A stretch of DNA of 64,000 bases. Origin: an uncultured Bacilli bacterium (GTDB taxonomy: Bacteria > Bacillota_I > Bacilli_A > RF39 > UBA660). Position 1 is the first letter of the stretch. Each line of letters begins with the position of its first letter. Below are positions 16,975 to 38,255 of this stretch, one piece after another. The translations under genes and the position numbers were made by a program. The notes under the pieces are model-generated. The model was not told where the DNA came from. It worked only from the letters and a program-made list of their open reading frames with translations, and ran no database searches. The DNA lies in NCBI GenBank assembly GCA_963931685.1, contig OZ007038.1, positions 1,194,940 to 1,258,939 of the forward strand. The letters run 5' to 3'.

Positions 16975-16997
16975 CTAAATGGTCGGGAAAACAGGAT
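16975..16997. repeat. att repeat (distal copy) CTAAATGGTCGGGAAAACAGGAT
   Basis: Identical to 27674-27696, which covers the last 18 nt of tRNA-Pro plus 5 nt downstream; flanking bases differ on both sides. Confidence 0.85.
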
Positions 16998-17127
16998 AAC
17001 GTACCATTTTATATATGTTTCATTTTCCTTTATTTTTCAAGGAGTTAAATGTACTTAAAGGTTACAGAGTGCTAATAATTTTCTTTGTTTTTATACTTTT
17101 TAAGTGAAAAACAAGGGAGGTAATAAA

Positions 17128-17787
17128 GTGGCAGTCTTCAGAATAAATAAGAACGATAATTATACTGTGATGTCTAATTATCATTTAAAAGATAAAAATC
17201 TAACATATAAAGCTAAAGGTCTACTTTCATTTATGCTTAGTTTACCAGATGACTGGGACTATTCAATGAACGGTTTAGTAGCCATTAGTAAAGAAAATAT
17301 TAGTGCCATAAGGTCTGCATTAAAAGAATTAGAGCAAAATCATTACTTAATCAGAACTAGACACCAAAAAAGTAATGGACAATTTGAATATGATTACACT
17401 ATTTATGAAAAACCTCTAGTTCAACCGTATATAGGTTTTCTGCATACGGTTAATCCGCATACGGAAAATCACATACAAATAAATACTAATAACAAAGATA
17501 AAAAAGATAAACAAAATTTGCCTTTAATAAAAGAGCTAATTAATAGAAATTTTATAGAAGAAAGCGATATAAATATACCGGCATATTATGATTTACTCTG
17601 TGATGTGCAAAAAGAATATGATTATTATGATTTGGCTAGAGTTTGTGGTTATATAGCTGATAAGTGGAAAGATAATAAAGGGTTAGACGAAAATAATAAC
17701 CCTATTATCAATAAATTTGCTTATTTTAAAAGTTCACTAATAAACAATTTAGAAAAAATAAATAATGTAGTTGAATTAGACTATTAA
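17128..17787 (+). CDS. replication-initiator / DnaD-like winged-helix protein
   Basis: FRINKNDNYTVMSNYHLKDKNLTYKAKGLLSFMLSLPDDWDYS is a typical plasmid/ICE Rep N-terminus; GTG 17128 follows GGGAGG. Confidence 0.5.
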   Translation: MAVFRINKNDNYTVMSNYHLKDKNLTYKAKGLLSFMLSLPDDWDYSMNGLVAISKENISAIRSALKELEQNHYLIRTRHQKSNGQFEYDYTIYEKPLVQPYIGFLHTVNPHTENHIQINTNNKDKKDKQNLPLIKELINRNFIEESDINIPAYYDLLCDVQKEYDYYDLARVCGYIADKWKDNKGLDENNNPIINKFAYFKSSLINNLEKINNVVELDY

Positions 17788-17848
17788 GATACTAGAAGAT
17801 ATGTTATTCGGCATATCTTCTTTTAATAATGAAAGAAAGGATGATTTA

Positions 17849-18097
17849 ATGAAAAAATTAACAATAGAAGAAATACAAAAAAATGATGTAAATACTATTA
17901 ATCAATTTAAAGTATTACAGTTTCTAAAGAAAGAACTTGATTTAAACTGTTTTGATGTTTACTTATACAATGAAGATACTATTAAAGTTATTGATAAACA
18001 TAATGATGTGGGTTACTTTAGTTATAATAAAGAAGTAAATGATATTACTTTTGTTGATGGAAAAGAGATTAATACTGAAATCGATTTAGGTATATAA
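17849..18097 (+). CDS. hypothetical protein
   Basis: 82-aa ORF from ATG 17849 (AAAGGA RBS), immediately upstream of the relaxase gene. Confidence 0.35.
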   Translation: MKKLTIEEIQKNDVNTINQFKVLQFLKKELDLNCFDVYLYNEDTIKVIDKHNDVGYFSYNKEVNDITFVDGKEINTEIDLGI

Positions 18098-18106
18098 TTA
18101 AACTTT

Positions 18107-19378
18107 ATGAACTATGCAATATTTAGAAGTGAACCAATATATACCCTATCTGATTTAGCTCAAATTGGTTCACATAATAAACGTGAGAAAAAATCATATA
18201 ATAGTAACCCTGATATAAAACTAGAATTAACTAAAGATAATATTCAATTAGTACCTTCAAATGAAAAATATGTTAAAGGGTTTTATGAACTTACTAAAGA
18301 ATATAAAAAAGAACATGATGAAAGAATGAAACATGAAAGAGCTGATAGGAAACGCACTTTTAAACAAATGCTTGATAAATCTAAAAATGTTGTGGCTGAT
18401 GAGCTATTATTTACAGCTACACATACCTTTTTTGAAAATATGAGTAAAGAAGATATTAAAAAATGGGCTGATACTTGTATGGAATTTGTATATAATGATT
18501 TAGGTTATACAAAGGATCAAGTATTACACGCAGTTGTTCACATGGACGAAAAAACGCCACATATTCATTGTGTTGTTGTCCCTTTGATTAAAAAATATGA
18601 TAAAAGAGCAAAACGTGAAAAATATACCATTTCTAAAAAAGCCTATATTAAAGATAAAATTCATTTGTCAGAGTTGCAAGATAAATATCATAAAAGGCTT
18701 ACTGATAAAGGTTTTGATTTAGAAAGAGGTATTAAAAATAGTGATAATGAACATATCAACATTAAGGAGTATAAAAAAATCACTAGAAAATTAAATCAAA
18801 AGTTAGATGTTAGAAATGAAAAACTAGAAAGTGCAATTAGTGATTTAGATAATAAAATGAAGACTAATAAAGAAACTTTATTTGATAAAGATTATGTTAA
18901 AATCAAAAAAGATACTTTTGACAGTATGAATAAAGTTATTTTTGAAAGTAAAAAAATTATGGAAATTCAACCTGCTTTAAAGAAAGTATATAATGAAGTT
19001 GATACATATACTCAAAGTTATCAAAATCTTCAAAAAGAAAATGATAATATTAAAAAAGAAGTCAAATATTTACGCAATAGAAACGAAAAGCTAGGTAAAG
19101 AAAACAAACAGCTTATTTCTTACATAAAAGCCATTTTTAAGGCTATAAAGCAATTTTTTAGGCATTTACTCATAATTGGCAATAAAGATGTTCAAAAGGC
19201 CACAAATGAAGAAATAAAAGATTATTATGATAATAAAGATTTTGATAATAATGACATTTATGATATTGCTAAAGATACTGATAGCGAAAAAGAATTATTT
19301 GATTATGCAGATATTAGTGATTATAGCCTAGTAAATAATGAATATGATAAAGATGATGACTATGAGATGTATTTATAA
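18107..19378 (+). CDS. MobV-family (Pre/Mob) relaxase
   Basis: HNKRE motif I and HMDEKTPHIHCVVVP (HxDE..PHxH) motif III; long coiled-coil C-terminus. Confidence 0.85.
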   Translation: MNYAIFRSEPIYTLSDLAQIGSHNKREKKSYNSNPDIKLELTKDNIQLVPSNEKYVKGFYELTKEYKKEHDERMKHERADRKRTFKQMLDKSKNVVADELLFTATHTFFENMSKEDIKKWADTCMEFVYNDLGYTKDQVLHAVVHMDEKTPHIHCVVVPLIKKYDKRAKREKYTISKKAYIKDKIHLSELQDKYHKRLTDKGFDLERGIKNSDNEHINIKEYKKITRKLNQKLDVRNEKLESAISDLDNKMKTNKETLFDKDYVKIKKDTFDSMNKVIFESKKIMEIQPALKKVYNEVDTYTQSYQNLQKENDNIKKEVKYLRNRNEKLGKENKQLISYIKAIFKAIKQFFRHLLIIGNKDVQKATNEEIKDYYDNKDFDNNDIYDIAKDTDSEKELFDYADISDYSLVNNEYDKDDDYEMYL

Positions 19379-19399
19379 TTCTAAAGCCAGTAAAAGAGG

Positions 19400-19627
19400 C
19401 TATTTTACTGGCTTTGATATTGTTGATAAGTTTTGACCAAGCGCTTTAGCAACCTTAGATACAGTATCTATTGTTGCATTTCTTTTGGCAAGCTCTAAAT
19501 CGCTAATACATTTATTCGTGGCATTGGACTCAAAAGCTAATTGTTCTTGAGTCCAGCCTTTACTTTTTCTATAATGCAATATATTACGAGCTATATATAT
19601 TCTGTCTTGATTTGTTAATTTTGCCAT
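19400..19627 (-). CDS. XRE-family HTH regulator
   Basis: 75 aa; KGWTQEQLAFESNATNKCISDLELAKRN HTH; close paralog of 19812-20036. Confidence 0.75.
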   Translation of the reverse strand: MAKLTNQDRIYIARNILHYRKSKGWTQEQLAFESNATNKCISDLELAKRNATIDTVSKVAKALGQNLSTISKPVK

Positions 19628-19811
19628 GTAAAAACCTACCTTTCACATTATTTTGTGCGTTTTTAGTCTTGTATGACTAGTTAAATTGTACTTTTTAATT
19701 TACATTACGTCGACGTCATATATGACTAATTTGGTAGATAAATTTATATACATTTTGCAATAAAAAAATTACTACCTTTAATAAATCTGATATAATGTAA
19801 TTAGGTAGTAA

Positions 19812-20036
19812 TTAGTTTATTTTTGTTAAGTCTGATAGTTGTACATCTAATGCTTTAGCGACTTTAGAAATTGTATCTAGTTTTACGTTTCTTTTAGCAA
19901 GTTCTAAATCGCTAATACATTTATTCGTCGTATGAGCTTCAAAAGCTAGTTGTTCTTGTGTCCACCCTTTGATTTTTCTGTAATGTACAAGATTACGAGC
20001 TACATACACTCTATCTTGATTTGTAATTTTATTCAT
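19812..20036 (-). CDS. XRE-family HTH regulator (paralog)
   Basis: 74 aa, aligns end to end with 19400-19627; the upstream region is duplicated as well. Confidence 0.75.
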   Translation of the reverse strand: MNKITNQDRVYVARNLVHYRKIKGWTQEQLAFEAHTTNKCISDLELAKRNVKLDTISKVAKALDVQLSDLTKIN

Positions 20037-20177
20037 GGAAGTATTACCTACCTTTCATGTTATTTTGTGCGTTATTTACAAGTCATATACGACTAATTAA
20101 ATTGTACTTTTTTATTTGTATAACGTCGACGTCATATATGACTAATAACTACCTTTTGTAGAAAGGAGGAAAACTGA

Positions 20178-20447
20178 TTGAATGTTAATTTTCAATTATT
20201 AAAATCTATTATGAAAGAAAAGAAATATACCTATGAATATATAGCAAATGCTTTAGGGTGTTCTAAACCTTTTGTATGGCAGATTATAAATAATAAAAGA
20301 CGATTATCATATAAAAATGCCTTATTAATTGCTCGTGCTTTTAATATGAAACCTGATGAGTTGTTTTATGATAGTTATATTGATAATGAAGATATAAAAC
20401 AGAACCTATTACAAGTAGATAAAGTACGAAATCTATCTTACAAATAA
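20178..20447 (+). CDS. XRE/Cro-like HTH regulator
   Basis: 89 aa; YEYIANALGCSKPFVWQIINNKRRLS HTH; divergent from 19812-20036 across palindromic operators. Confidence 0.65.
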   Translation: MNVNFQLLKSIMKEKKYTYEYIANALGCSKPFVWQIINNKRRLSYKNALLIARAFNMKPDELFYDSYIDNEDIKQNLLQVDKVRNLSYK

Positions 20448-20543
20448 CTAAAATATATTAAATTGTTATAAAATTATTGAAAATTAAAATTGAAAATGAT
20501 AGTATATATAACAATAAATTAATTTTTTAGTTAATTTTTGGGT

Positions 20544-20573
20544 TTGACACTATAAAATGCTGCATGATAAAAT
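20544..20573 (+). promoter_or_regulatory. sigma-A promoter of the methyltransferase/radical-SAM operon
   Basis: TTGACA (20544-20549), 18-nt spacer, extended -10 TGATAAAAT (20565-20573). Confidence 0.5.
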
Positions 20574-20594
20574 ATTTTTGGGTCGTGGTGATTA

Positions 20595-21434
20595 ATGATA
20601 AGTAAATTTGATTATAGTAAAAATTTTTTAAAAAATGATGATTTATTAATTTGTCCTATTTGTAAAGGAAGATTAATTTTAAATGATCATTCATTAGTGT
20701 GTAAAAATAAACATACTTATGATATTTCAAAAAAAGGTATTACTACCCTTGTTTCACATAATCATATTAAAGAAAGTAAAATATATAATTATGAATTATT
20801 TTCAAATAGAAGAAAATTTATTCAAAAAATGTATTATAAAGATTTGTATAATAAAATAATTAATATTATAAACCAGAATTTTGATAAAAAAATAAATATT
20901 ATAGATTTAGGCTGTGGCGAGGGTGCTCATACAATGAATATATTAAATTCATTAAAACTAAATTATGTGTATTACGGATTTGATTATTCCAAAACAGCTA
21001 TTGATATGGCTAGTTATTACAATTCTGATGTTAGATTTTATTTTGTGGCAGATGTCAATAATGTTCCTATTAAAGATAATTCTATTGATTTAATTATTGA
21101 TATATTATCCCCATATAATCAGTCAGAAATAAAAAGATTGTTAAAAAAGAATGGTATATTTGTTAAAGTTGCTCCTGGAAAAGATTATTTAAAAGAAATG
21201 AGAGCTGCTACAAATATTTCTACGTATGATAAAGATGTAGAAGTGGAGCAAAATTTGAATAAAAACTTTAAAGTAGTAAAAAAAGAGCATATTTTAAACA
21301 CTTACCCAATTACTAAAGATGATTTTAAACTATTATTAAAAATGTCGCCAATGTACAACGATAAAGTATTTAAGATTCCTGAAAAAATAACAATAGATTT
21401 AATGATATATATTATGAATGGAGAAGAATTATGA
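20595..21434 (+). CDS. RlmA/RrmA-like SAM-dependent (rRNA guanine-N1) methyltransferase
   Basis: N-terminal Zn-ribbon CPICKGRL..LVCKNKHTYDISKKG, then IIDLGCGEG SAM motif; overall layout as in RlmA. Confidence 0.65.
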   Translation: MISKFDYSKNFLKNDDLLICPICKGRLILNDHSLVCKNKHTYDISKKGITTLVSHNHIKESKIYNYELFSNRRKFIQKMYYKDLYNKIINIINQNFDKKINIIDLGCGEGAHTMNILNSLKLNYVYYGFDYSKTAIDMASYYNSDVRFYFVADVNNVPIKDNSIDLIIDILSPYNQSEIKRLLKKNGIFVKVAPGKDYLKEMRAATNISTYDKDVEVEQNLNKNFKVVKKEHILNTYPITKDDFKLLLKMSPMYNDKVFKIPEKITIDLMIYIMNGEEL

Positions 21435-22735
21435 TTTCTAAATATGTAAGTAAAGTAAAAATTAAAAATGATGTATATGCAATATTCAACAATTTGGTTA
21501 TGTTACCTATATTTGTTAATGAAAAACAATGTAACGATATTTTGAATGGTAATGTAGATAATTTAACAGATGAAGAAAAAACTGAATTTATAAAGGCAGG
21601 AATAATTATTGAAAATAAGGATACTGATGTGAAATTGTTAAACACATTAAAAATGGCGCGTGAACAATTCATGAAAGAACATATAACTATAATGTATATA
21701 ATTCCTACCAATACGTGTAATTTAAAATGTAAATACTGTTTTATAGGTAAACTTAATGATAAACCTGTAAAAATGGACGAAGGAACTTTAATTAATGCTA
21801 TTGAATTGTTTAATAAACATTTAGAAGAAATTGGGGATAAAGGAACTATTTTTCTTTATGGTGCTGAGCCATTACTCAACTTTGATTTAATTAAGGTAGG
21901 CGTTGAATATGTTAAAAAACATAATTACAATATTCAATTTTCTATGGTATCAAATGGAATACTTATAACTGATAAAATTGCGGATTTTATCAAAGAAAAT
22001 AATATTTCTTTAGGAATTTCTATTGATGGTCCAAAAGAAATTACTGATGAAAATAGGATATTTAAAAACGGTAATAATAGTGTATATGACGCTGTTTTAA
22101 AGAAAATAGATTTATTAAAGTCCAAAAAGGTTGACTTTGGGTTATCAATAACTATTGCTCCAATATTTCTTGAAAACGAGGAATATTTTCTAGATTGGAT
22201 TTCTAAACTAGGAGTATATAATATTAGTTATAATTTATTACATTTTACAACAAAAACAGATGCGTGGAAAGATTATTATAAAAAAGCAACTAAATTTATT
22301 TATAAATCTAACAAAAAACTATTTGACCAAGGTTTTAATGAAGATAGAATTAACAGAAAATATGATTCATTTTACAACAGAATATTTAAATTTAGTGACT
22401 GCGGAGCGGTTGGTGGAAATCAAATAACTGTATGTCCAAATGGCGACATTGAAATATGTCATGGTTATTGGAATTACAAAAGAAAAATTTTGCCAAATAT
22501 TAATCAAATTCAATCATTTTCCGATTTATTTGATAATGCTGAATATATAAAATGGTCTAATAATATTACATTAAATAAGAAAAAATGCTTACGATGTCCC
22601 GCAATATACATATGTGGTGGTGGCTGTGCTATGCAAGCAAAGGATTTATTTGGTAATGAAAAAAAAATTGATAAACCATTTTGTATATATACTAAAGGAA
22701 TGTTAAAAAACATTTTAAAAGAAGTGTATGAGTAA
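21431..22735 (+). CDS. radical SAM / SPASM-domain peptide-modifying enzyme (last 7 codons replaced by IS insertion)
   Basis: CNLKCKYC (Cx3Cx2C); C-terminal CLRCPAIYICGGGC (Cx2Cx5Cx3C) SPASM signature; ~90-aa N-terminal extension; ATGA overlap with the methyltransferase stop; its TAA stop lies inside the IS terminal repeat. Confidence 0.85.
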   Translation: MISKYVSKVKIKNDVYAIFNNLVMLPIFVNEKQCNDILNGNVDNLTDEEKTEFIKAGIIIENKDTDVKLLNTLKMAREQFMKEHITIMYIIPTNTCNLKCKYCFIGKLNDKPVKMDEGTLINAIELFNKHLEEIGDKGTIFLYGAEPLLNFDLIKVGVEYVKKHNYNIQFSMVSNGILITDKIADFIKENNISLGISIDGPKEITDENRIFKNGNNSVYDAVLKKIDLLKSKKVDFGLSITIAPIFLENEEYFLDWISKLGVYNISYNLLHFTTKTDAWKDYYKKATKFIYKSNKKLFDQGFNEDRINRKYDSFYNRIFKFSDCGAVGGNQITVCPNGDIEICHGYWNYKRKILPNINQIQSFSDLFDNAEYIKWSNNITLNKKKCLRCPAIYICGGGCAMQAKDLFGNEKKIDKPFCIYTKGMLKNILKEVYE

Positions 22736-24401
22736 CTATTCAGACTATGGCACGCAAAAGTAAAGAGTAATCAGTGATTGATTGCTCTTTTAATTTGCAA
22801 ATAACACTTTATTTTCAAATATTGCATTAATAGACTCAAAAGGGTTTATATTCCTTTTGATAGATGTCTTTATAATTGATAAGGTATTAGCAAAATCTTG
22901 GGCAACATTTATGCTTCTAAAGCCTCCTGATATTTTCGTTTTGTTTTTAAATATTCTTAAATCTCTTTCACTTAGGTTATCATCAAAGGGAACTTTAAAA
23001 TCTTCTATAAAATACAAATGATTTTGTTTATATTTTACCAATCTATTATATAATGGTTTGGCCTTGGTTACCCTGTAATATGAAGATTTTATTTGTTTGT
23101 TTTCTTCTTTGGCTAGCTCTAAAATTTCTTCATATTCATCTTTGTATTCTTTTATCTTATCATCAGAAAATTTTGTTAATCCATAAGCTATAGCTATCTT
23201 TCTTGTATTATTCATTCTAAATATTAAATCATACATTAAAAATGGCCATTTCGTATCTGGTATATTTTCCATCAGTTCCATTAAATATCTTCCCAAGTGA
23301 ATATTACATTCATAATTTTTACTACCATAACTATATAATGTTGTATCATGATCACCCATTATTCCTCCACAAAATCTTGGCAATATATTATCTTCTTTAA
23401 TTGGATTATGACCTTTATTTTTATGAACTTTATAGACTACATTCTCTTCATTACTATAATTTCTTACATATAGCTTTTTCTTATTGAATTTGGTCCCAGT
23501 TTCATCAGTAAATCCATTGTCCTTATTTAAAAAGTTATTTTCTAAATTTATTATTGTAGCTTTACTTTTGTTCCCAAATTCTTTTACAAAATTTACTAAT
23601 GTTCCATTAGAAATATTATAAACATTATTTGTCACCACACTAAAGAAATCACTTAATCTATTATAAGCAACTACGTTATAACATCCTAAATGAATCGATA
23701 ATGTCTTTATACTATTTCCATATGTCACATCTGTATAAAACTCTTTTGGCAGTGTTTCTGAAGACTTATCATCATATTTAAATATATGTTTTTCTATGTA
23801 TGGCTTAATTTCTAATTCATATCTATATTTTATTAAGGGCTCTTTTTTGGGATTACCCTTGATTGTATGAATAATTTCTCTAACTTCAACTTTATTTTCA
23901 CTTATTAATTTTTCTGCATCTTTTTTACTTAAATTATATCCTTGATGATTATATTGACCGCCTTTCTTTTTGCCGGTTATAGTGCGATAATTATATAAAT
24001 TAGCTCCTGTTTTCTTTTTAGGCGTAACAATATTAGTCGATGATGGTTTACTAGAATTATTACTGTTTTTATTATTTTGATTTTTTAGTCTATCTATTTC
24101 ATTTAATAATTTTTGGATAGTTTTATCTTTTTCTAAAATAATAGCTTTTAATTCATCTTGTTTTTCTTTGAACTCTTTTTTCAATTCTTTATTTTCTTTA
24201 AACAATATATCTAACTTATTATTTAATTCTTCGAATTGTCTGTAAAAATCTACAGTTACTGTCATCGTTTTTATGTTTGCCATACTATCACTATCCTCAA
24301 CTATTTTTATTTTCTCACATTTAAACAAAAAAAGCAGCATCGTTGACACTACTTTTGACACTTTATTTAATTTTTTTTATTTTCATAGTCTGAATAGTTA
24401 C
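22732..24401 (-). mobile_element. IS66-family-like insertion sequence, copy B (1670 bp)
   Basis: Same terminal repeats and identical transposase as copy A; 8-bp duplication GTGTATGA at 22724-22731 and 24402-24409. Confidence 0.9.
22790..24361 (-). CDS. IS66-family transposase (identical to 6239-7810)
   Basis: 523-aa product identical to copy A in the supplied translations. Confidence 0.85.
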   Translation of the reverse strand: MSKVVSTMLLFLFKCEKIKIVEDSDSMANIKTMTVTVDFYRQFEELNNKLDILFKENKELKKEFKEKQDELKAIILEKDKTIQKLLNEIDRLKNQNNKNSNNSSKPSSTNIVTPKKKTGANLYNYRTITGKKKGGQYNHQGYNLSKKDAEKLISENKVEVREIIHTIKGNPKKEPLIKYRYELEIKPYIEKHIFKYDDKSSETLPKEFYTDVTYGNSIKTLSIHLGCYNVVAYNRLSDFFSVVTNNVYNISNGTLVNFVKEFGNKSKATIINLENNFLNKDNGFTDETGTKFNKKKLYVRNYSNEENVVYKVHKNKGHNPIKEDNILPRFCGGIMGDHDTTLYSYGSKNYECNIHLGRYLMELMENIPDTKWPFLMYDLIFRMNNTRKIAIAYGLTKFSDDKIKEYKDEYEEILELAKEENKQIKSSYYRVTKAKPLYNRLVKYKQNHLYFIEDFKVPFDDNLSERDLRIFKNKTKISGGFRSINVAQDFANTLSIIKTSIKRNINPFESINAIFENKVLFAN

Positions 24402-24430
24402 GTGTATGAAGATAATTTAAATTCACAAAA

Positions 24431-24460
24431 TTGACTTTTAAGATATTGCTGTGATAAAAT
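24431..24460 (+). promoter_or_regulatory. sigma-A promoter of the Cys-rich peptide gene
   Basis: TTGACT (24431-24436), 18-nt spacer, TGATAAAAT (24452-24460); same architecture as the promoter at 20544. Confidence 0.5.
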
Positions 24461-24481
24461 TGTGGAAAGGAGGAGGTTATA

Positions 24482-24667
24482 ATGAAAATAGCAAAAATTA
24501 GTGCTAAAAACAAAAAGTTTAGAGCTTCTAATTCTATGGCTTCTACTTGTAATTGTGGTGCTTGTAATTGTAATTGCGGTAGTGGAAGTAGCTGCAGTAA
24601 TGTTTTCATTTCACATGAAATTGCATCACTTTTAAATTCTCAAGTTGATCATATTTTAAATGCTTAA
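24482..24667 (+). CDS. 61-aa six-cysteine peptide, candidate RiPP precursor
   Basis: AGGAGG RBS 7 nt before the ATG; core TCNCGACNCNCGSGSSC; lies 80 bp beyond the reconstructed radical-SAM stop. Confidence 0.6.
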   Translation: MKIAKISAKNKKFRASNSMASTCNCGACNCNCGSGSSCSNVFISHEIASLLNSQVDHILNA

Positions 24668-24866
24668 AAAAACTAACTTTTAACCAAGTTAGTAACACAC
24701 TACGATATTGGCTTAGCCAATAACGATGTGTGCCAAAGGGTTTTCCCTTTGGAAACCCCAAACAACACATTTATCAATTAAGGTAATGTGTTGTTTTTAT
24801 ATTGCAAAAAAAGACTATCGCCACTTTCATTGAAACATAGTTTCAACAAAACGTGCCACGTCTTTT

Positions 24867-25304
24867 TTATTTAATATTATGTTGTTGTTTAAGTAATTCT
24901 ATGGTTTCTTTCCTAGCACCACTAATACTAACATAGGTAAATATTTCTGCTATTATTGTTATTATTGTAAAGCCTATCATTACATACAAATTATTTATAA
25001 TACCTTTTTCAACACTATTAAAAAACATAAGAATTAAAAAGATAAGTCCAAATATTACTACAATTATAGTTGTAATATCTGAAAATGATCTATTAATAAT
25101 TTTTGATTTATTAATATCGGAGTTTAGTCCTTCTTTACTCCATTCATTTATAATTAATACTAAAAATATTAAAATTAACGGTGTTGTAAACCAATAATAA
25201 TCAAACATATTATTATTATCAGCAATTCCACTTAAAATTAAAAATAGTATATTTAGAATATTAGTGATTATTAATAAAACATTTAAAACTTTAGTTTTTC
25301 GCAT
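24867..25304 (-). CDS. small integral membrane protein (about 4 TM)
   Basis: 145 aa, four hydrophobic segments; start overlaps the upstream XRE gene by 14 nt. Confidence 0.5.
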   Translation of the reverse strand: MRKTKVLNVLLIITNILNILFLILSGIADNNNMFDYYWFTTPLILIFLVLIINEWSKEGLNSDINKSKIINRSFSDITTIIVVIFGLIFLILMFFNSVEKGIINNLYVMIGFTIITIIAEIFTYVSISGARKETIELLKQQHNIK

Positions 25305-25791
25305 TTTTATTTCTCTCCTTTACTTTGATACTTTGTATTAATTTAATTATTTCATTTGAAGTATTAATTTGGTATTTTGTATCTTCTATGGTATTTAATA
25401 ATAGTTCTTTTTCTTTATCCGTTATATTTTCTTTTTTTAAATTTTCTTCACACGATTCAATTAATTTTTTGTTATTTTCTATACTACCTAATACATTTAT
25501 TTCAGCCGCATTTAATTCTTCCCCTTTTAAATTAGAATAGAAACTTTTAATAAAAGGATTTAATGGACTTACTTGAAAGCCTAAACCTGCAGCATACATT
25601 AAATCATTATAATTAACATCAATGTATTGGCTTATTTTTCGGAGTGTTTTAGGATTTGGCATTTCCCGTTTTCCACTTTCAATTCTCGCTAATTCAGTAT
25701 CACTAATATTAGCTAATCTTGATAATTCCCTTTTTGATAAACCTTTTTCTTCTCTAGCTTTGGCTATCATTTGACCAACAGTTTCATACAT
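25291..25791 (-). CDS. XRE-family HTH regulator with C-terminal helical domain
   Basis: GLSKRELSRLANISDTELARIESGKR HTH; start set at MYETVGQ (ATG 25791 after GGAG). Confidence 0.7.
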   Translation of the reverse strand: MYETVGQMIAKAREEKGLSKRELSRLANISDTELARIESGKREMPNPKTLRKISQYIDVNYNDLMYAAGLGFQVSPLNPFIKSFYSNLKGEELNAAEINVLGSIENNKKLIESCEENLKKENITDKEKELLLNTIEDTKYQINTSNEIIKLIQSIKVKERNKNAKN

Positions 25792-25881
25792 AAGAATACT
25801 CCTCTCTGCTATAAATATAGCATATATTTCGTATTTTTTCAACTAATTTGATGTAAAATAATGACTTTTGCAACTTTTTGG

Positions 25882-25910
25882 TTGACAAAAATGTATTTAT
25901 GTTATATACT
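25882..25910 (+). promoter_or_regulatory. sigma-A promoter ahead of the long xis-int leader
   Basis: TTGACA (25882-25887), 17-nt spacer, TATACT (25905-25910); xis starts about 310 nt downstream. Confidence 0.55.
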
Positions 25911-26228
25911 CAACTTATAGGTTGCACTAGAATTCAATTGTAACCTAAAAAAGGATCTTTGAAAACCGAATAGTGTGCTTACGCTCAGACTGGCCCAGGG
26001 TTTGCTGGGAACGGGAAGTACACGTTAAACAAAAAATCATCCTAATTCATATTAGGAGTTGTGGGTTAGCTAAAACCCTCCTTAGATACATTGCCTAAAA
26101 AGTATGTATACATCCTAAAAGGGAGTTGTCGGTAACACTAAAACCGTCAAAATTTAAGCTATAAGTTTAAATTAATTTATACTACGTATTAAAAAATGAT
26201 AAAATGTACTAGAGAAAGGAGGTGAAAT

Positions 26229-26525
26229 ATGTCCTATGGTGAGCTATATAATGTTATAAATCATGCTTGGGCTAGTTTAAAAGAAATTCAGTTAATAGCA
26301 CAGTGTGGTAGAAAGGCAGCTGAAAATATTAGAGATAATATTAAAAATGATATTATCAATAGTGGTAAAAAACTTCCAGAGGGAAAGACAATAGTAATAC
26401 CTATGAAAAATTTACTAGAATATCTAAATTTAGATTTAGAATATATCACACAAATGGCAATAAATGAGCAAAAATTTAATCTAGCTAATAACAGGACTAA
26501 TAATTATGCCGGTATATCAAGATAA
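26229..26525 (+). CDS. xis: excisionase / recombination-directionality-factor-like small DNA-binding protein
   Basis: 98 aa; overlaps the integrase start by 20 nt; GGAGGTGA RBS; position typical of Xis. Confidence 0.45.
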   Translation: MSYGELYNVINHAWASLKEIQLIAQCGRKAAENIRDNIKNDIINSGKKLPEGKTIVIPMKNLLEYLNLDLEYITQMAINEQKFNLANNRTNNYAGISR

Positions 26526-27603
26526 GAAAACGAAGAAATGGTATTATAGGGCTTATGCTGATGATGTGTATGGAAATCATAAACAATTTGAAAAACATGG
26601 TTTTAAAACTAAAAAAGAGGCAACAACTGCTGAAAGTGAACTATGTACATCGGATGAAAAAGAATGTACGATTAGCTTTATGGAACTGTGGGAAGATTAT
26701 GATAAATATATAAAATTAAAATTAAAAAAACAATCATATAGAAAGACTGTTAGTAAATTTAATAATCATATAATACCATATTTTAAAAAATATAAAGTAA
26801 AATCAATAAACGTTAGTATTTATACAAAATGGCAACAAGAAATTGAGAAAAAGCATTTTAGTCATGATTATAATTCTAGTTTACATTCCTCTATGGTTAC
26901 TATATTAAACTATGCCAAGAAATTTCATGGTTTAAAAGTAAATATAGCTAGTAATGTTGGAAATTTTGTTAAAAAGACAGAGTTACCTAAAAAAGTGGAC
27001 TTTTGGACTTATGAAGAATTTAAGAAATTTATTCAAGTTGTCAAAGAAAAACATTATCAAATATTCTTTGAAACATTATATTTTACTGGTTTAAGACAAG
27101 GAGAATGTTTAGCACTAACTTGGAAAGACTTTAAAGATAATTATTTAGATATATATAAAACTATATCAAAAGAACAAGAAAACGGTCAATATATCATTAA
27201 TACTCCAAAAACAAAAAATTCGATTAGGAAAATTAAAGTTGATAGTCATTTAGTAGGTTTACTCAATGAATTAAAAGAAAGTTATAAAAAATATGAGGGT
27301 TTTAATGATGACTGGTATATATTTGGTGGTATTAAACCTTTTGCTCCTACAACAATCGGTAGGAAAAAAGATAAATATTGTGCGTTAGCAGGTGTAAAAA
27401 AAATAAGAATACATGATTTAAGACATAGCCATGCATCCTTATTACTGTCATTTGGAGTTCCAATTACAGTCATTTCCCAAAGACTTGGACACTCCGATAT
27501 AAATATGACACTTAACACTTACTCACATTTAATGCCTCGTGATGAGGACAAAGCCATCAATATGATTAATGACTTAATAAAATTTAACCCCTTAATAATA
27601 TAG
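26506..27603 (+). CDS. int: tyrosine site-specific integrase
   Basis: N-terminal AP2-like arm domain (KKTKKWYYRAY), SAM-like domain, catalytic TGLRQGE ... HDLRHSHAS ... LGHSDINMTLNTYSH. Confidence 0.92.
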   Translation: MPVYQDKKTKKWYYRAYADDVYGNHKQFEKHGFKTKKEATTAESELCTSDEKECTISFMELWEDYDKYIKLKLKKQSYRKTVSKFNNHIIPYFKKYKVKSINVSIYTKWQQEIEKKHFSHDYNSSLHSSMVTILNYAKKFHGLKVNIASNVGNFVKKTELPKKVDFWTYEEFKKFIQVVKEKHYQIFFETLYFTGLRQGECLALTWKDFKDNYLDIYKTISKEQENGQYIINTPKTKNSIRKIKVDSHLVGLLNELKESYKKYEGFNDDWYIFGGIKPFAPTTIGRKKDKYCALAGVKKIRIHDLRHSHASLLLSFGVPITVISQRLGHSDINMTLNTYSHLMPRDEDKAINMINDLIKFNPLII

Positions 27604-27673
27604 AAATAAGGGCATTTTAAGGGATTAAGTATCATTTATATTATAAAATCCTTATAAAATAAGGGATTATAAA

Positions 27674-27696
27674 CTAAATGGTCGGGAAAACAGGAT
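27674..27696. repeat. att repeat (tRNA-proximal copy)
   Basis: Identical 23-mer to 16975-16997; overlaps the tRNA-Pro 3' end. Confidence 0.85.
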
Positions 27697-27755
27697 TTGA
27701 ACCTGCAACCCCCTGGTCCCAAACCAGGTGCTCTACCAAGTTGAACTATTTCCCG
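27679..27755 (-). tRNA. tRNA-Pro(UGG)
   Basis: Reverse strand CGGGAAA...acceptor, anticodon loop TTTGGGA, T-arm GCAGGTTCAAATCCTGT, encoded CCA. Confidence 0.93.
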
Positions 27756-28009: not shown

Positions 28010-28012
28010 AAG

Positions 28013-28064
28013 TGGTGGTTTCGGACAGAATCGAACTGCCGACACAGGGATTTTCAGTCCCTTG
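28013..28064 (-). pseudogene. displaced 3' fragment of the original tRNA-Phe (positions ~25-76 incl. CCA)
   Basis: Reverse strand CAAGGGACTGAAAATCCCTGTGTCGGCAGTTCGATTCTGTCCGAAACCACCA; homology stops abruptly at 28064. Confidence 0.85.
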
Positions 28065-28197
28065 TTGTCTATTTTAATTATATTTAATATTTATACTCAT
28101 TTATCTATAAACCGTTATATTGTATACTATTTTAACTAGATTAAATTTTTGATTAAAATAAATGATTTTAAATAAATTTAATGTTTTTAATGATGTT

Positions 28198-28243
28198 TTG
28201 TCCACGTTTGTCCATAAAATTTTAGTAGAACTTTTTGTCCACA
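28198..28243 (+). repeat. three TTGTCCAYA motifs (left arm of island)
   Basis: TTGTCCACG 28198-28206, TTGTCCATA 28208-28216, TTGTCCACA 28235-28243. Confidence 0.7.
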
Positions 28244-28325
28244 AATCACCGTTTTTCAAAGAACATATATATAATATCACAAAATAAAATCACTATGCAA
28301 TACATTTAACAAAAAAAAGTGGATT

Positions 28326-30087
28326 TTTGTTACTATTCACAGCCTAGAGTAGACAATGAAAGTATCTAGTAAAAATAACTAGGTACTTTTTTACTGTGGA
28401 TAAAGTGGTAAAAACCGTTGGAAAATAAGGGAAAAATCATGATTTAGGTATTGCAAGTTTCATCTTATTTTGATATATTGAATATAGTAAAGGAAGTAAG
28501 ATATATATGCCACTAAAATCAAATTATTCTAATCAATTATTTAATGACTATCAAAAACTAGAAATAAAAAATAAAAAATTAAATATGGAAATTAAAACTT
28601 TAAGATTAGAAAAAAGCTTGTTAAAAGATGAATTAAAAAAACAAAGAGATGAATTAGATGAGAAGAATAAAGAAATTGCTAGATTAAAGTCATTACTTAA
28701 TAATGACGGAACTAATAGTGGCATTTCTACTAGTAAAACTCCTATTAATAAAAACAAAGTTATTCCAAATAGTAGGAAAAAAAGTGGCAAAAAGATAGGC
28801 GAACAAAAAGGTCATAAAAAACATAAATTAGAAAGATTTAAAGATGAAGATGTTACAGAAGTAGAATATATTGAAATGGATAGATGTCCAAATTGTAATC
28901 ATGAATTAATAGATACTAATGAAACTATTGATAAAGATGTTTTGGATTATGAATTAGTTGTGGTTAAAAAAAGAATAAAATTTAAAGAATACAAATGTCC
29001 TTGTTGCGGAAAAAAAATACATTCTAAAATACCTAATGAGTTAAAAGAAGATGTTCAATATGGACCAAATGTAAAATCATTAGTTTTATCATTATTAAAT
29101 GAAGGATACATATCAATTAATAGGGTTAAAAGAATTATTAAAGGATTAAGTCAAGGAGATATAGATTTAAGTGAAAGTTATATAGCTAAAGTACAAAAAG
29201 TAATGTCTGAAAAACTAGATGATTTTAAGCAAGAGGTAACTAGAGAACTTTTAAAAAGAAAATTATTGTATTGGGATGATACAGTAATATTTGTTGATAA
29301 GAAAAGAGCTTGTTTAAGATTTTATGGTGATGAGAAAATAGCTTTATATGTATCACATAAGCAAAAGAACAAAGATGGTCTTGATGAAGATAATATACTA
29401 AAAAATTTAAGTAATCATACAAAGGTAATGCATGACCATAATAAAGTAAATTATAATGAAGAATATTCATTTATAAATTTAGAATGTAATGCCCATCTAC
29501 AAAGAGACTTACAAAAAGTGATAGATAATTTAAAAGCTGATTGGGCCACAAGGTTAAAAACATTAATATCTGAAAGTATTAAACAAAGGAACAAATTTAT
29601 AGAAAACAACTATACTTATAACGATGAATTTAGTAATAACTTCTTTGATAAATTTAATAAAATAATGTTATCAGCCATAGATGAAAACAGAAATAGAGAA
29701 AGTGTTTTTTATAAAGATGAAGAAAAGACATTAATACAAAGGATATTAAATTATAAAGACAACTATTTTGCATGGATAGCAGATTTTACATTACCGACAA
29801 CAAATAATTTATCTGAACGTTCACTTAGATCTAGTAAAACCAAACAGAAAGTATCTGGGCAATTTAAGAATATTGATAGAGCTATGGATTATGCCAATAT
29901 AAAGACATACATAGAGACCAGTTACAGAAATGGTATAAATCCTATGTATGCACTATTTAGACTATCAATAGGTGCCCCCTTTACTTTAGATGAAATTTTG
30001 AACAATGAAAAATTAAGCGAAGAAAAATAGCGAATATCTCCGCTATTTTTAAGTGCCTTTATTTATTAGGCTGTGAATAGTAACAAA
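28326..30087 (+). mobile_element. IS66-family insertion sequence (third, divergent element)
   Basis: Inverted ends TTTGTTACTATTCACAGCCT (28326-28345) and AGGCTGTGAATAGTAACAAA (30068-30087); no clean TSD seen. Confidence 0.7.
28507..30030 (+). CDS. IS66-family transposase (with zinc-finger block)
   Basis: Coiled-coil N-terminus, CPNCNHEL...CPCCGKK zinc finger, C-terminal TNNLSERSLRSSKTKQKVSGQF...GINPM. Confidence 0.85.
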   Translation: MPLKSNYSNQLFNDYQKLEIKNKKLNMEIKTLRLEKSLLKDELKKQRDELDEKNKEIARLKSLLNNDGTNSGISTSKTPINKNKVIPNSRKKSGKKIGEQKGHKKHKLERFKDEDVTEVEYIEMDRCPNCNHELIDTNETIDKDVLDYELVVVKKRIKFKEYKCPCCGKKIHSKIPNELKEDVQYGPNVKSLVLSLLNEGYISINRVKRIIKGLSQGDIDLSESYIAKVQKVMSEKLDDFKQEVTRELLKRKLLYWDDTVIFVDKKRACLRFYGDEKIALYVSHKQKNKDGLDEDNILKNLSNHTKVMHDHNKVNYNEEYSFINLECNAHLQRDLQKVIDNLKADWATRLKTLISESIKQRNKFIENNYTYNDEFSNNFFDKFNKIMLSAIDENRNRESVFYKDEEKTLIQRILNYKDNYFAWIADFTLPTTNNLSERSLRSSKTKQKVSGQFKNIDRAMDYANIKTYIETSYRNGINPMYALFRLSIGAPFTLDEILNNEKLSEEK

Positions 30088-30485
30088 TTTTCCCTATCTT
30101 TTTGCAAATCTTCTTGACTTTGATTATATTTTTTTAGTTTTTTTCTATCCTCTTCATTAACTAATTCATCACTAAAAATATATTTTATATAATTATCAAT
30201 TATTGGCTTGTTTATTCCAACTGCATCGCATAAACTAAGTAACCTTTGTTCTTCTGCTTGTTGTTTTGCTTTTATCTCTTTGTTTCTTTGGGCTAATTCT
30301 AACTCTCGCTGTTTAGTTTGTCTTTCTTGTTCTAATAATGCTTGCTGTTGTAATAATTTATTTTGTTCTTCCAAAAGTTTATTTTGAGTTTCTTGTTGTT
30401 CGTACCTATTATCAGCAGCTATCATTTGATCAACTATATCCATACCATTGTCCGTCTTTTCCCCTAAATAGTCCCATAACTTCAT
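30066..30485 (-). CDS. coiled-coil protein (3' end fused into the IS66 terminal repeat)
   Basis: 139 aa, Q/E/K-rich heptad-like centre; last codons and stop lie inside the IS right end; 4-nt overlap with the upstream gene. Confidence 0.5.
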   Translation of the reverse strand: MKLWDYLGEKTDNGMDIVDQMIAADNRYEQQETQNKLLEEQNKLLQQQALLEQERQTKQRELELAQRNKEIKAKQQAEEQRLLSLCDAVGINKPIIDNYIKYIFSDELVNEEDRKKLKKYNQSQEDLQKDRENLLLFTA

Positions 30486-31012
30486 TTCTCCTTATTTAAT
30501 TTATTAATTGAAATAACATTACTCATAGTCTTAATGTACTCTATTAAAGCTTTGTCAGGTTTAGAAAACTCCATTCCAACAATAACTGTGATACCATGAT
30601 TTTTTAAACTATATAATGATTCAAATAATGCTTTCTTATCTGTTTTAGCTTCTTCTAATAAAACAAACGAATCAATTACTAATACCTTAATATTTTTCTC
30701 TTTGATGGTATTAATAATGTCTTTTATACCGATTTTTGAATTATCCACAACATAAATATTATCTAATGTTAAATTTATATCTGAATAAGTTTTTGCTCGT
30801 TTAATTATGTAATCACTTTTACTTAATAATGATATAAACATTAGTTTATTTTTTTTATCAAGTTCATTGATTAACTTTAATAATAACCTAATTAACCCCT
30901 GATCTTTATTACTATATACCACTGTAATATTATTTATAATATTATCCAAAGGTGGTATATAATCTGCCATTACCGCTTGCCGGCTTGTAATGGTGGTTAT
31001 TTTATTTGTCAT
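30482..31012 (-). CDS. small RecA/KaiC-fold-like protein, no Walker A (paralog 2)
   Basis: 176 aa; VLVIDSFVLL (Walker-B-like strand) and HGITVIVGMEF; aligns with 31027-31524; no GxxxxGK(S/T). Confidence 0.4.
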   Translation of the reverse strand: MTNKITTITSRQAVMADYIPPLDNIINNITVVYSNKDQGLIRLLLKLINELDKKNKLMFISLLSKSDYIIKRAKTYSDINLTLDNIYVVDNSKIGIKDIINTIKEKNIKVLVIDSFVLLEEAKTDKKALFESLYSLKNHGITVIVGMEFSKPDKALIEYIKTMSNVISINKLNKEK

Positions 31013-31026
31013 TTAAAACACACTCC

Positions 31027-31524
31027 TTATGTAATCACCATTCCTCCCAAATTTTCTACGTACATTATTATTTCATCAATACAGCTTAATTCTGAATTTA
31101 TAATTATAGTTATTCCTTGCTCGCAAATATAATGTAATAAACTAAATAGTTCTTCATAGTTATGGTTAAGCAAAAGCTGAAACTCATCAATGACTAATAT
31201 TTTGCTGTTAGTTTCATTAACCATTTTCATTATAGATTCAGGTTTTATATTATCTATATCTTCATAAACAATGTTTGTAGACTGGATTATATCTAAATTA
31301 GCTTTAGTACTGATGTATAAAATTGGATAACTTTTACACAGTAACTTAACTAAATTTATAAATACTGATTTTTTATAATTTTCATATTCGCCAAAAATAA
31401 AAGTAATATGATTTATAATGGTATCTAAATCATAAACATAATTTTCATTTAATACATCTTTTGACTCCAACAGACAAGCTGATCCTTTATAAGAACTTAC
31501 AGTCTTTTTTGATAATGCTTTCAT
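31027..31524 (-). CDS. small RecA/KaiC-fold-like protein, degenerate Walker A (paralog 1)
   Basis: ATG 31524 after GAGGGAG; FGEYENYKKS in the P-loop position, ILVIDEFQLL Walker-B-like, QGITIIINSE. Confidence 0.4.
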   Translation of the reverse strand: MKALSKKTVSSYKGSACLLESKDVLNENYVYDLDTIINHITFIFGEYENYKKSVFINLVKLLCKSYPILYISTKANLDIIQSTNIVYEDIDNIKPESIMKMVNETNSKILVIDEFQLLLNHNYEELFSLLHYICEQGITIIINSELSCIDEIIMYVENLGGMVIT

Positions 31525-31546
31525 AATAAACTCCCTCAAACCTATA

Positions 31547-33311: not shown

Positions 33312-33334
33312 TCTTTTTAAATCAATCAAAATAC

Positions 33335-33461
33335 TTTAAATATAATACAACATAATTACCCAAAATAAACAACGTGTGAGAAACAAAGAGAATGGGGCAA
33401 TATGCAAATAAGATAAATTTAGAATTACAAAGCTAACAACAAGTGTGGACAAAATTAGTCT
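33335..33461. repeat. 127-bp module, copy L (downstream of the array, upstream of the RecA-like operon)
   Basis: Near-identical to 38256-38382 (a few substitutions, two 1-nt indels); contains TGTGGACAA at 33444-33452. Confidence 0.85.
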
Positions 33462-34321
33462 ATTCCTAGTAACTTGTTATATTCTTCCTCGGTTAAGGCT
33501 TGAACTACACAATCACTTGTTTCAAAATTCGGTAATATTTCTTTAATAGTTTTTCTTAATTTTTTATTATTTAATTCAAAAAAGTTATCATAATATATAT
33601 GTAATACATAAGAATCTTTACCTCGATTGCAATACCGACTCTTTATTTCACTTATATTACTAGAAAATAAACCGATGGGGGAATCTGTAAAATCTTTATA
33701 TAATTGAACAAAAGCTGAACTATCTAATAATTTAATATTTTCATACCTTACAATGTCAAATCCTCCAATAATGTAATCGCCTTGTTTAACTAAGGCTTTA
33801 TATTTTTTACAAAAAGAAATTTTTTTACCATTATATACACACTTTAATAATTTAGAATTTGACCAATCAACATTATTTTTGTAGTCATTATCTGCTAAAT
33901 CATAATTGATTAAATAATAATTTTTCGGATAAAATTTTATATCAACTATATTCGGTATTACTTCTACATAATTTTGTAATGCTATAACTCTTTCTATTTC
34001 ACTTTCCCAACCATATTTTTCGTTTAAATAGCTATGTAAATGACAATCATCTTTCCAACATATAAGTACATCTATGGGGCTCTTTTTAAAAAACGCTTGA
34101 TATTTACTCTTTAATAAATAATCACTTGATAAATATTCAAAGATAATAGTCCTTTCTTTATAATGCGAATAAATTTTTGTACCATTTGGTTGTAATTCAT
34201 CATAGGATAAAATATTACCAAGTCTAGGAAAACCTAATTGATCGTGCAATTGTCCAAATAATACTTTAACATCTGTTACAGAATTAACCGGTGAATAAAT
34301 TTTAATTTTTTCGCTACACAT
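33455..34321 (-). CDS. array paralog P1: conserved N-domain + PUA/EVE-like C-terminal region
   Basis: 288 aa; blocks KIYSP, LHDQLGFP, FEYLSSDY, ICWKDDC, YYLINYDL, GDYIIGGFDIVRYENI, LTEEEYNKLLG. Confidence 0.6.
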   Translation of the reverse strand: MCSEKIKIYSPVNSVTDVKVLFGQLHDQLGFPRLGNILSYDELQPNGTKIYSHYKERTIIFEYLSSDYLLKSKYQAFFKKSPIDVLICWKDDCHLHSYLNEKYGWESEIERVIALQNYVEVIPNIVDIKFYPKNYYLINYDLADNDYKNNVDWSNSKLLKCVYNGKKISFCKKYKALVKQGDYIIGGFDIVRYENIKLLDSSAFVQLYKDFTDSPIGLFSSNISEIKSRYCNRGKDSYVLHIYYDNFFELNNKKLRKTIKEILPNFETSDCVVQALTEEEYNKLLGID

Positions 34322-34362
34322 TTATTACAACTCCTTTAGATTTGCTTATAAAATTTGTGAAT

Positions 34363-35241: not shown

Positions 35242-35265
35242 TTATTACAACTCCTTTAGATTTGC

Positions 35266-36147: not shown

Positions 36148-36189
36148 TTTTATACACCTCACTATCAAATATTTACTTTAAAATTTATA

Positions 36190-38202: not shown

Positions 38203-38255
38203 AATTTTTACACCTCAAGTGTAATTATACATTACCAAAAGTATAAAAGCAAGTA

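Follow-up and report, generated by a model that had tools for sequence, protein, structure and literature searches.

A mobile three-gene cassette of gut Firmicutes joins an RlmA-family methyltransferase to a radical SAM/SPASM maturase and an unnamed family of cysteine-rich peptides

Among peptides that are ribosomally synthesised and then modified post-translationally (RiPPs), the described system nearest to the locus reported here is FibroRumin, in which a radical S-adenosylmethionine (SAM)/SPASM maturase (TIGR04136) adjoins Cys-rich precursors (TIGR04135); CteB/thermocellin, PapB/freyrasin and the SCIFF pair of Clostridia are further relatives. Methylation of 23S rRNA by Tsr and NshR is a means of self-protection in thiopeptide producers, and the RlmA-family enzymes TlrB, MyrA and ChrB guard macrolide producers through m1G748. 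Here, we describe a cassette that encodes a radical SAM/SPASM maturase together with an RlmA-family enzyme. It lies at positions 20544–24667 of a stretch of 64,000 nucleotides, referred to as the window, from an uncultured Bacilli bacterium (GTDB RF39, UBA660; assembly GCA_963931685.1, contig OZ007038.1, positions 1,194,940–1,258,939), and consists of a methyltransferase gene, a maturase gene and a gene for a small Cys-rich peptide. This trio is probably an uncharacterised modified-peptide system recurring in many gut Firmicutes; more tentatively, and with a chance of being right that we place slightly below even, it is a three-gene RiPP module in which the methyltransferase serves as a ribosome immunity function.

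All three genes, found both in the open reading frame (ORF) listing and in the raw sequence, lie on the plus strand. The RlmA-family methyltransferase (MT) of the 23S rRNA m1G745/748 type has 279 amino acids (aa), with a Zn ribbon and a class-I fold (20595–21434), and its stop codon overlaps the start of the maturase gene (21431–22735) in the tetranucleotide ATGA, as read in the initial annotation of this locus and confirmed in the sequence. The maturase, with a predicted N-domain resembling a RiPP recognition element (RRE), is 434 aa long in the window, against 441 aa for the native enzyme. The precursor peptide of 61 aa follows at 24482–24667.

Conservation across lineages supports the RiPP-like architecture that had been proposed for this cassette, namely an RlmA-type MT, a radical SAM/SPASM maturase and a Cys-rich precursor carried on a mobilizable element. 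At least 11 diverged lineages, with maturases 35–72% identical, keep an RlmA-type MT, the maturase and a CNCGxCNCNCG peptide together (L011–L016, L102, L184, L186, L191 and L202, where L-numbers label comparison loci; P-numbers, used below, label MT homologue proteins). In L011–L016, which come from GTDB genomes (metagenome-assembled genomes of gut 'Bacilli'), the maturases are 35–55% identical and the RlmA-type MT stands directly upstream in every case; a small Cys-rich ORF lies near the maturase, on either strand, in L011 and L013–L016, and the L012 contig stops just upstream of the MT, at the expected location of the peptide. Elsewhere, the cassette is found on a serine-recombinase element (L102), adjoining topA on the chromosome with a maturase 72% identical (L184), and adjoining spo0A, also on the chromosome (L186). 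In L202, the peptide and maturase genes are followed by the MT on the opposite strand, convergent and uncoupled; since the trio is kept despite the changed gene order, the association survives rearrangement. Altogether, three gene orders and at least four kinds of context are represented; the contexts include a mobilizable element with a tyrosine integrase, elements with a serine recombinase, and chromosomal sites.

An independent test from the peptide side gave the same picture. In a metagenome scan with the back-translated core TGYAAYTGYGGNNNNTGYAAYTGYAAYTGYGG alone, 11 of the 12 matches were family peptides; L190, L191, L193 and L196 carry both MT and maturase, L195 and L199 an MT fragment and L194 a maturase, and the four remaining contigs are short or end beside the peptide. 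Conservation of the peptide next to homologous enzymes, on which the initial annotation had staked its proposal, is thus borne out by maturase-side and peptide-motif searches alike. In 9 of 10 loci, the stop codon of the MT gene overlaps the start of the maturase gene or is at most 5 nt away from it, and the two enzymes co-diverge: across the pairwise identities of 12 cassettes, the Mantel correlation is r=0.90, and none of 5000 permutations reached this value. None of the other genes of the window's island occurs beside other cassettes. We considered a 145-aa membrane protein and the helix-turn-helix (HTH) proteins of this island as exporter or immunity proteins, and rejected them as they are absent next to other cassettes. 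What is conserved is these three genes and no others; neither a transporter nor a protease gene is part of the unit.

The six-Cys ORF of 61 aa with its Shine-Dalgarno sequence was confirmed at 24482–24667. The Shine-Dalgarno sequence AGGAGGAGG ends 5 nt ahead of the ATG, and the encoded peptide, MKIAKISAKNKKFRASNSMASTCNCGACNCNCGSGSSCSNVFISHEIASLLNSQVDHILNA, comprises a leader with a KKF motif, the core STCNCGACNCNCGSGSSC and a follower of ~23 aa, with all six Cys residues inside T22–C38. A look-up of the exact peptide sequence in the public assembly collection matched 353 blocks, and a profile search retrieved a family of 117 clusters at 90% identity, 48–69 aa long and all unnamed. When 1.84 billion representatives were searched exhaustively with HMMER, 46 clusters at 50% identity were returned, 44 of them family peptides and the other two unrelated long repeat proteins. 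The core, (S/A)(S/T)x-C-N-C-G-x-C-N-C-N-C-G, is close to invariant, although one sub-family reads NQCTCSNCNCNC with unchanged Cys spacing; a K-K-F/Y motif lies ~10 residues upstream of it, and most members have I/V-Y-K/R at the C-terminus. Orthologous peptide genes, adjoining homologous enzymes, differ at many synonymous codon positions, which argues that the ORF is a translated gene under selection; judged by this sequence pattern, it is a real gene. The family has no name, no Pfam or NCBIfam model and no paper in the literature searched. The precursor had been thought unlike known ones, in agreement with which the window peptide matched nothing in Pfam or NCBIfam, nor the FibroRumin precursor model TIGR04135.

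The maturase sequence carries the motifs of a radical SAM/SPASM enzyme. Of the profiles that the initial annotation had named, Radical_SAM (PF04055) matched at 73.2 bits, well above its cutoff of 29.5, whereas the SPASM and SCIFF models scored below theirs: the Pfam SPASM match was weak (18.6 bits, cutoff 21.5), with SPASM recorded in most homologues, and the SCIFF model TIGR03974 reached 98.3 bits against a cutoff of 425. The Cx3Cx2C and SPASM Cx2Cx5Cx3C signatures noted earlier hold up across the family, in that 42 homologues all keep the CxxxCxxC residues C96, C100 and C103 and seven C-terminal Cys residues (C324, C343, C386, C389, C395, C399 and C418). The seven, some of which belong to the motifs G338-x4-C343 and C386-x2-C389-x5-C395-x3-C399, make up the set for two auxiliary [4Fe-4S] clusters. 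The earlier suggestion that the N-terminal extension might recognise the precursor is consistent with an AlphaFold2 model (pLDDT 94, pTM 0.91), in which the first 80 residues form three strands (6–12, 15–20 and 27–29) and three helices (31–38, 47–55 and 63–80) in an RRE-like topology. The closest solved structures are CteB, TigE and anSME, and the full-length structural matches CteB and TigE carry RREs. Judging from its motif, its SPASM Cys residues, its predicted N-domain and the conserved precursor beside it, the maturase would belong to the RRE-dependent radical SAM/SPASM class.

The maturase belongs to a large family (985 matches at E<=1e-10) and has full-length similarity to the FibroRumin, CefB and Clo7bot maturases and to PapB. 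All NCBIfam scores stay under cutoff: the best, TIGR04136 (FibroRumin), spans the full length at 222.2 bits (cutoff 400), followed by PapB NF047865 at 161.6 bits (cutoff 340), CefB at 143 and CcpM at 124. In a plasmid collection, the sole finds were a FibroRumin system of Campylobacter (29%) and a match in Paraclostridium (34%). With PADLOC, the cassette and the genes around it showed nothing beyond generic radical SAM similarity to pVip and HTH matches, and no defence system.

The layout of the MT is that of RlmA, as previously annotated. It matches Zn_ribbon_RlmA (PF21302) at 34.3 bits (cutoff 27) together with class-I methyltransferase domains, contains DLGCGEG, and aligns over residues 19–207 to the Escherichia coli RlmA(I) structure 1P91 (E=7.8e-24). 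Its Cys3His Zn ribbon, C20-P-x-C23...C36-x3-H40, is kept in coupled and stand-alone homologues. The best NCBIfam match, NF008300 (E. coli RlmA, m1G745), scores 141.7 bits against a cutoff of 303, and the G748 enzymes Erm(32), ChrB and MyrA score 64.6, 66.3 and 38.9 bits, short of equivalog level. The MT is therefore an RlmA-family member with no assignable orthologue, and its target guanine would be G745 or G748.

Close homologues of the MT also occur outside cassettes. The stand-alone P0137 (L099–L101), 64% identical, has as neighbours rplM-rpsI, NUDIX, a PF10672 methyltransferase and also a pseudouridine synthase, and the surroundings of P0152, 50% identical, are SpoU-NUDIX-MT-pheST; P0147 and P0172 are uncoupled too, and neither maturase nor peptide lies near any of these four. 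In a bootstrapped neighbour-joining tree (100 replicates), coupled MTs were monophyletic in 0/100 bootstraps. The rRNA-context MT of L099 grouped with the window MT in 97/100, this pair fell inside a clade with the coupled L184 MT in 98/100, and the uncoupled L094 MT paired with the coupled L016 MT in 100/100. While 75 alignment columns are nearly invariant in both the coupled and the stand-alone group, no column in the alignment is specific to either. We therefore rejected the idea that cassette MTs form a specialised clade apart from housekeeping RlmA, and nothing in the sequences suggests that the MT has acquired a new function or substrate. Additionally, L096–L098, from a related organism with flanks 73% identical, hold a decayed island at the matching chromosomal site (L096 4952–7182), which has lost the genes for maturase, peptide and relaxase but keeps the cassette's promoter-like site, an integrase that is truncated (91%) and an intact MT (78% nucleotide identity). 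This orphan MT looks like an immunity or resistance gene, not a tailoring enzyme.

A mechanism consistent with these observations can be outlined. The RRE-like N-domain of the maturase would bind the precursor, and its one SAM-cleaving and two auxiliary [4Fe-4S] clusters would modify the Cys-rich core, with Cys-derived thioether cross-links of the sacti- or ranthipeptide type as the likeliest modification. The MT, translationally coupled to the maturase, would retain the ancestral activity, N1-methylation of 23S rRNA at G745 or G748 of helix 35, by the exit tunnel, and would act as the immunity function of the module, so that the ribosomes of the producer do not respond to the mature peptide. 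We infer ribosome self-protection, in preference to methylation of the peptide, because the MT bears no sign of neofunctionalisation, stand-alone homologues in rRNA contexts are nested among the coupled ones, an orphan MT exists, and MT and maturase co-diverge. The UvrA-like partner in the sister FibroRumin systems, which is another classical type of self-resistance protein, also counts for immunity. In its most specific form, the proposal is that a crosslinked Cys-rich peptide hits the exit tunnel near helix 35 and that the RlmA-type m1G modification is the antidote, so that the cassette would be a mobile toxin/immunity unit of gut Firmicutes; this we consider possible but distinctly doubtful.

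Several points weigh against an immunity role. m1G748 alone confers only weak macrolide resistance. No type-A cassette encodes an exporter, a leader protease or a double-Gly site (the type-B sister cassettes are described below), and the lack of exporter and protease, atypical for a secreted antibiotic and resembling intracellular SCIFF-type systems, argues against a bacteriocin of the classical, secreted kind. In the type-B cassettes L018, L188 and L189, a GNAT acetyltransferase occupies the MT position, which fits tailoring as well as immunity. The 64-kb window contains no second rlmA, and the MT may be the host's only one. As regards the chemistry, the structurally close enzymes CteB (thioether formation), TigE (cyclopropanation) and anSME (Cys oxidation) catalyse different reactions, so that thioether formation is a guess from the Cys-rich substrate.

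The same RiPP module could instead employ its RlmA-like MT as a tailoring enzyme that S-, N- or O-methylates the precursor or product, with the Zn ribbon re-used to hold the peptide. Tight coupling and co-divergence are what would be expected of enzymes with a common substrate, GNATs such as the one in the equivalent type-B slot are common RiPP tailoring enzymes, and with no exporter an immunity gene is perhaps unneeded. Yet the homologues in rRNA-modification neighbourhoods, 50–64% identical, are nested in the coupled clade, no alignment column sets the coupled MTs apart, the orphan MT persists intact with neither maturase nor peptide, and the L202 MT is transcribed convergently by itself. 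Moreover, L016 has, between its RlmA-type MT and the maturase, an extra ordinary class-I MT, which could be the agent of any peptide methylation, and no RlmA-family enzyme is known to us to have a peptide substrate. Overall, we regard tailoring by the MT as rather unlikely, though worth serious attention. The absence of transporter and protease genes from every context of this minimal cassette would also suit a modified peptide that stays inside the cell, either as a SCIFF-like redox or metal-binding cofactor, for which the metallothionein-like CxCxxCxCxC spacing speaks, or as a ribosome toxin forming with the MT an addiction pair that stabilises its element, as would fit the frequent location on integrative elements and the expression of the MT first, from a promoter common to the maturase. 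Chromosomal copies without mobility genes (L184, L186) run counter to such a role, as do type-B relatives, whose ArpU regulator and holin-like protein suggest release; we consider an intracellular or addiction function unlikely.

Least probable by far, in our estimate, is that the MT is a housekeeping rlmA or a passenger macrolide-resistance gene lying by chance beside an unrelated radical SAM/peptide pair. RlmA-type genes are known resistance determinants, the Erm(32), ChrB and MyrA models match at 39–66 bits, and both stand-alone close homologues and MT-only remnants exist; however, chance does not readily account for adjacency in at least 11 diverged lineages, at least four contexts and three gene orders, with overlapping stop and start codons, nor for the Mantel correlation between MT and maturase.

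If the MT is an immunity gene, its pairing with the maturase and peptide predicts the target of the product (23S rRNA helix 35/exit tunnel) from sequence alone, and small mobilizable islands carry rRNA-methylase resistance genes around among gut bacteria, along with their cognate compound. If the ribosome-toxin/antidote proposal is true, this would be the first RiPP of the sacti- or ranthipeptide type to target the ribosome and the first case of an RlmA-family enzyme conferring immunity to a RiPP, and orphan MTs would be independently spreading immunity genes with possible macrolide or ketolide cross-effects. If the MT methylates the peptide, it would be the first peptide methyltransferase with an RlmA fold. 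The trio is a compact three-gene system that is directly testable in E. coli.

In the window, the cassette is interrupted. The initial annotation had merely implied an insertion by speaking of a reconstructed stop; here, a complete insertion sequence (IS) of the IS66 family was identified between enzyme and peptide (22732–24401, minus strand, 1,670 bp, with DDE_Tnp_IS66 and NF033517 matches). Its terminal inverted repeats, GTAACTATTCAGACTATG, start with GTAA and are perfect over 18 nt, and an 8-bp target-site duplication, GTGTATGA, flanks it at 22724–22731 and 24402–24409. The DDE_Tnp_IS66 transposase (523 aa, 22790–24361, minus strand) is its single ORF, the canonical accessory tnpA and tnpB ORFs being absent. 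A second copy at 6181–7850, with the target duplication AATTTTAT, is 100% identical over 1,670 bp, from which we conclude that the insertion into the cassette is recent; it is absent from the cassettes of L002, L005 and L010. The IS is evidently active in this genome. A third, distinct IS66-type transposase gene (507 aa) lies at 28507–30030.

The TAA stop of the maturase (22733–22735) sits inside the IS, which supplies the last codon and the stop. The displaced native 3' end is found at 24402–24434 (plus strand), reading (V Y E) D N L N S Q N and stop: with the IS taken out, the maturase ORF reads ...KEVYEDNLNSQN and ends with a stop at 24432–24434. This is 47 bp ahead of the peptide ATG and not ~80 bp, as had been estimated, and the uninterrupted copies L002, L005, L007 and L010 have a 441-aa enzyme with the identical 47-bp spacing. 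The insertion costs the maturase seven C-terminal residues, all in the non-conserved tail, and leaves intact the promoter-like site of the precursor, which lies beyond the IS. For these two reasons, the split cassette is probably still functional.

The cassette is cargo of an integrative mobilizable element in a tRNA-Pro gene, in line with the initial annotation. The longest exact repeat between both flanks is a 23-bp direct repeat, CTAAATGGTCGGGAAAACAGGAT, with attL at 16975–16997 and attR at 27674–27696, the latter overlapping the 3' end of tRNA-Pro (27679–27755, minus strand); the repeat core also flanks the element in L001–L005. The enclosed 10.7 kb (16975–27696; 9.0 kb minus the IS) encode, on the plus strand, a MobV/Mob_Pre relaxase (18107–19378; Pfam Mob_Pre E=2.7e-30, with blastn matches to mobV of small plasmids) and a tyrosine integrase (26506–27603), for which Arm-DNA-bind_4, Phage_int_SAM_3 and Phage_integrase were matched in Pfam on identical copies, preceded by a 98-aa ORF with no Pfam match (26229–26525, plus strand), a candidate excisionase. 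Between the repeats there are also an HTH_36 protein, three small HTH regulators, the 145-aa membrane protein and an HTH_19 protein, and no type IV secretion system genes. The marks of such elements are an integrase, att repeats where a tRNA gene has its 3' end, and a relaxase with no conjugation apparatus. The identical element occupies the identical chromosomal site in several metagenome contigs. Searched against the plasmid collection, the island DNA matched in mobV only, and a scan of IMG/VR with the maturase profile returned nothing above 27% identity, indicating that the cassette is not phage-borne.

Just upstream of the cassette's promoter-like site lies an HTH_3 regulator of 89 aa (20178–20447, plus strand; Pfam HTH_3), which is part of the mobilizable element and outside the conserved trio; other cassettes lack it, except for a weak match in L012. 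Further upstream, two HTH_3 gene duplicates of 74 and 75 aa (19400–19627 and 19812–20036, 77% nucleotide identity) are each followed by a conserved box of ~66 nt (19665–19730 and 20081–20146, 88%) that holds the palindrome ACGTCGACGT. These boxes may be operators of a regulatory switch of the island.

Two look-alike promoters had been described in the cassette. Both sites are present on the plus strand, one for the MT-maturase operon at 20544–20573 (TTGACA, 18 nt, TGATAAAAT; 11/12, with a TG extension; top-scoring in the region) and the other for the precursor gene at 24431–24460 (TTGACT, 18 nt, TGATAAAAT; 10/12, TG), and they align gap-free, distance to the ATG included; however, such matches are not enriched in this AT-rich region (48 versus 41 ± 5.9 in shuffles), and for this reason we did not use the promoter calls as evidence. 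The former site is the one kept beside the orphan MT in L096. Downstream of the peptide gene, four stem-loops stand in a row, and a U-run comes after the fourth (24672–24797, plus strand). Their minimum free energy is -50.5 kcal/mol (z=-8.06), a stability that none of 200 shuffles reached; they are likely a terminator and mRNA-stabilising 3' region for the precursor, in common with the convergent 145-aa gene.

The window as a whole is very AT-rich, at 26.4% G+C, and spore-coat genes (YutH and CotZ homologues) are present in identical contexts, pointing to a spore-former. Beyond the mobilizable element, a partial tRNA-Phe 3' half at 28010–28060 is 94% identical to 38450–38500, at the intact tRNA-Phe (38453–38528). 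The ~10.4 kb between these copies (28010–38528) contain the IS66 transposase, a DDE/rve transposase (31732–33165) and five tandem paralogues of ~290 aa each (33455–38202) with no Pfam match, and an 86-nt repeat, 99% identical, flanks the paralogue array (33376–33461 and 38297–38382). This region looks like a second integrated island. A 12-tRNA array, with two tRNA-Gln genes included, lies on the minus strand at 38453–39696.

Among relatives of the cassette, the type-B sister cassettes (L018 5051–9030, L188 4063–8004 and L189 4538–7554) have maturases 43–46% identical and peptides with the core ASVCNSCACGGGxGSCNTTCKGCKDK. L018 and L188 are inserted between uvrA and lgt, and share the order ArpU-family regulator, GNAT (coupled to the maturase), maturase, 59-aa peptide, a 312-aa protein that starts with IDTHSH (hydrolase-like) and a holin-family protein with four transmembrane segments; L189 has GNAT, maturase and peptide in common with them, plus a 327-aa protein. 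Separately, a relative 34% identical (L017 4628–8297) comprises two tandem radical SAM/SPASM genes followed by an APH-family phosphotransferase.

FibroRumin, whose TIGR04136 model is the best NCBIfam match of the window maturase, resembles the cassette in that an RRE-radical SAM-SPASM enzyme adjoins short, Cys-rich precursors containing CxC runs, and in being a minimal cluster, often on mobile DNA, with a conserved third, resistance-like gene. Genuine FibroRumin loci (L019 593–3563, L020 1459–5447 and L204 4646–8448, the last on a Campylobacter plasmid) encode two or three tandem Cys-rich TIGR04135 precursors, a TIGR04136 maturase and a UvrA-like ATPase paralogue of ~700 aa with no membrane domains. 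They differ from the window in that the precursors are tandem, lie upstream and have a different leader, and in that the partner is this UvrA-like ATPase, not an RlmA-type MT. We examined whether the window cassette is a FibroRumin member and rejected this on three counts: the maturase stays below the TIGR04136 cutoff; TIGR04135 (cutoff 45 bits) does not match the window peptide at E<=0.01, nor the L013, L188 and L016 peptides at E<=1, whereas true FibroRumin peptides score 55–64 bits in the run shared with those three; and a UvrA-like paralogue downstream of the maturase is absent in the window and all type-A loci. The cassette is a sister system of FibroRumin.

CteB of the thermocellin system is the top match of the maturase in sequence (5WGG, E=3.8e-40) and in structure (Foldseek 5WHY, E=2e-22, TM-score 0.71). 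CteB and PapB share with it the RRE, the radical SAM domain, the twin-cluster SPASM domain and a Cys-containing substrate, but identity is only ~21%, and their clusters usually include transporters or proteases and no rRNA methyltransferase. PapB is further set apart by the 340-bit cutoff of NF047865, which the window maturase does not reach, and by the window core, which has no Asp/Glu and hence no Cys-X3-Asp repeats. SCIFF (scfA/scfB) is likewise a minimal precursor-maturase pair with no exporter or protease, six Cys residues and Firmicutes hosts; in contrast to the window cassette, it has another Cys spacing and no MT partner, and its maturase model TIGR03974 stays below cutoff here. SCIFF is also a core chromosomal gene, whereas the window cassette is accessory and mobile.

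On the side of the MT, the proposed logic is like that of Tsr/NshR and of TlrB/MyrA/ChrB, in which the biosynthetic genes are accompanied by one for an rRNA methyltransferase that modifies the ribosomal target of the drug. TlrB, MyrA and ChrB have the RlmA fold in common with the window MT; Tsr and NshR are SpoU-type 2'-O-methylases acting at A1067, and TlrB-type enzymes accompany polyketide macrolides, not RiPPs. Our literature searches found no report that joins an RlmA-type MT with a radical SAM RiPP. Thus, while radical SAM/SPASM maturases with Cys-rich precursors are already known, this peptide family and its constant RlmA-type partner are what is new or unusual in the system described here.

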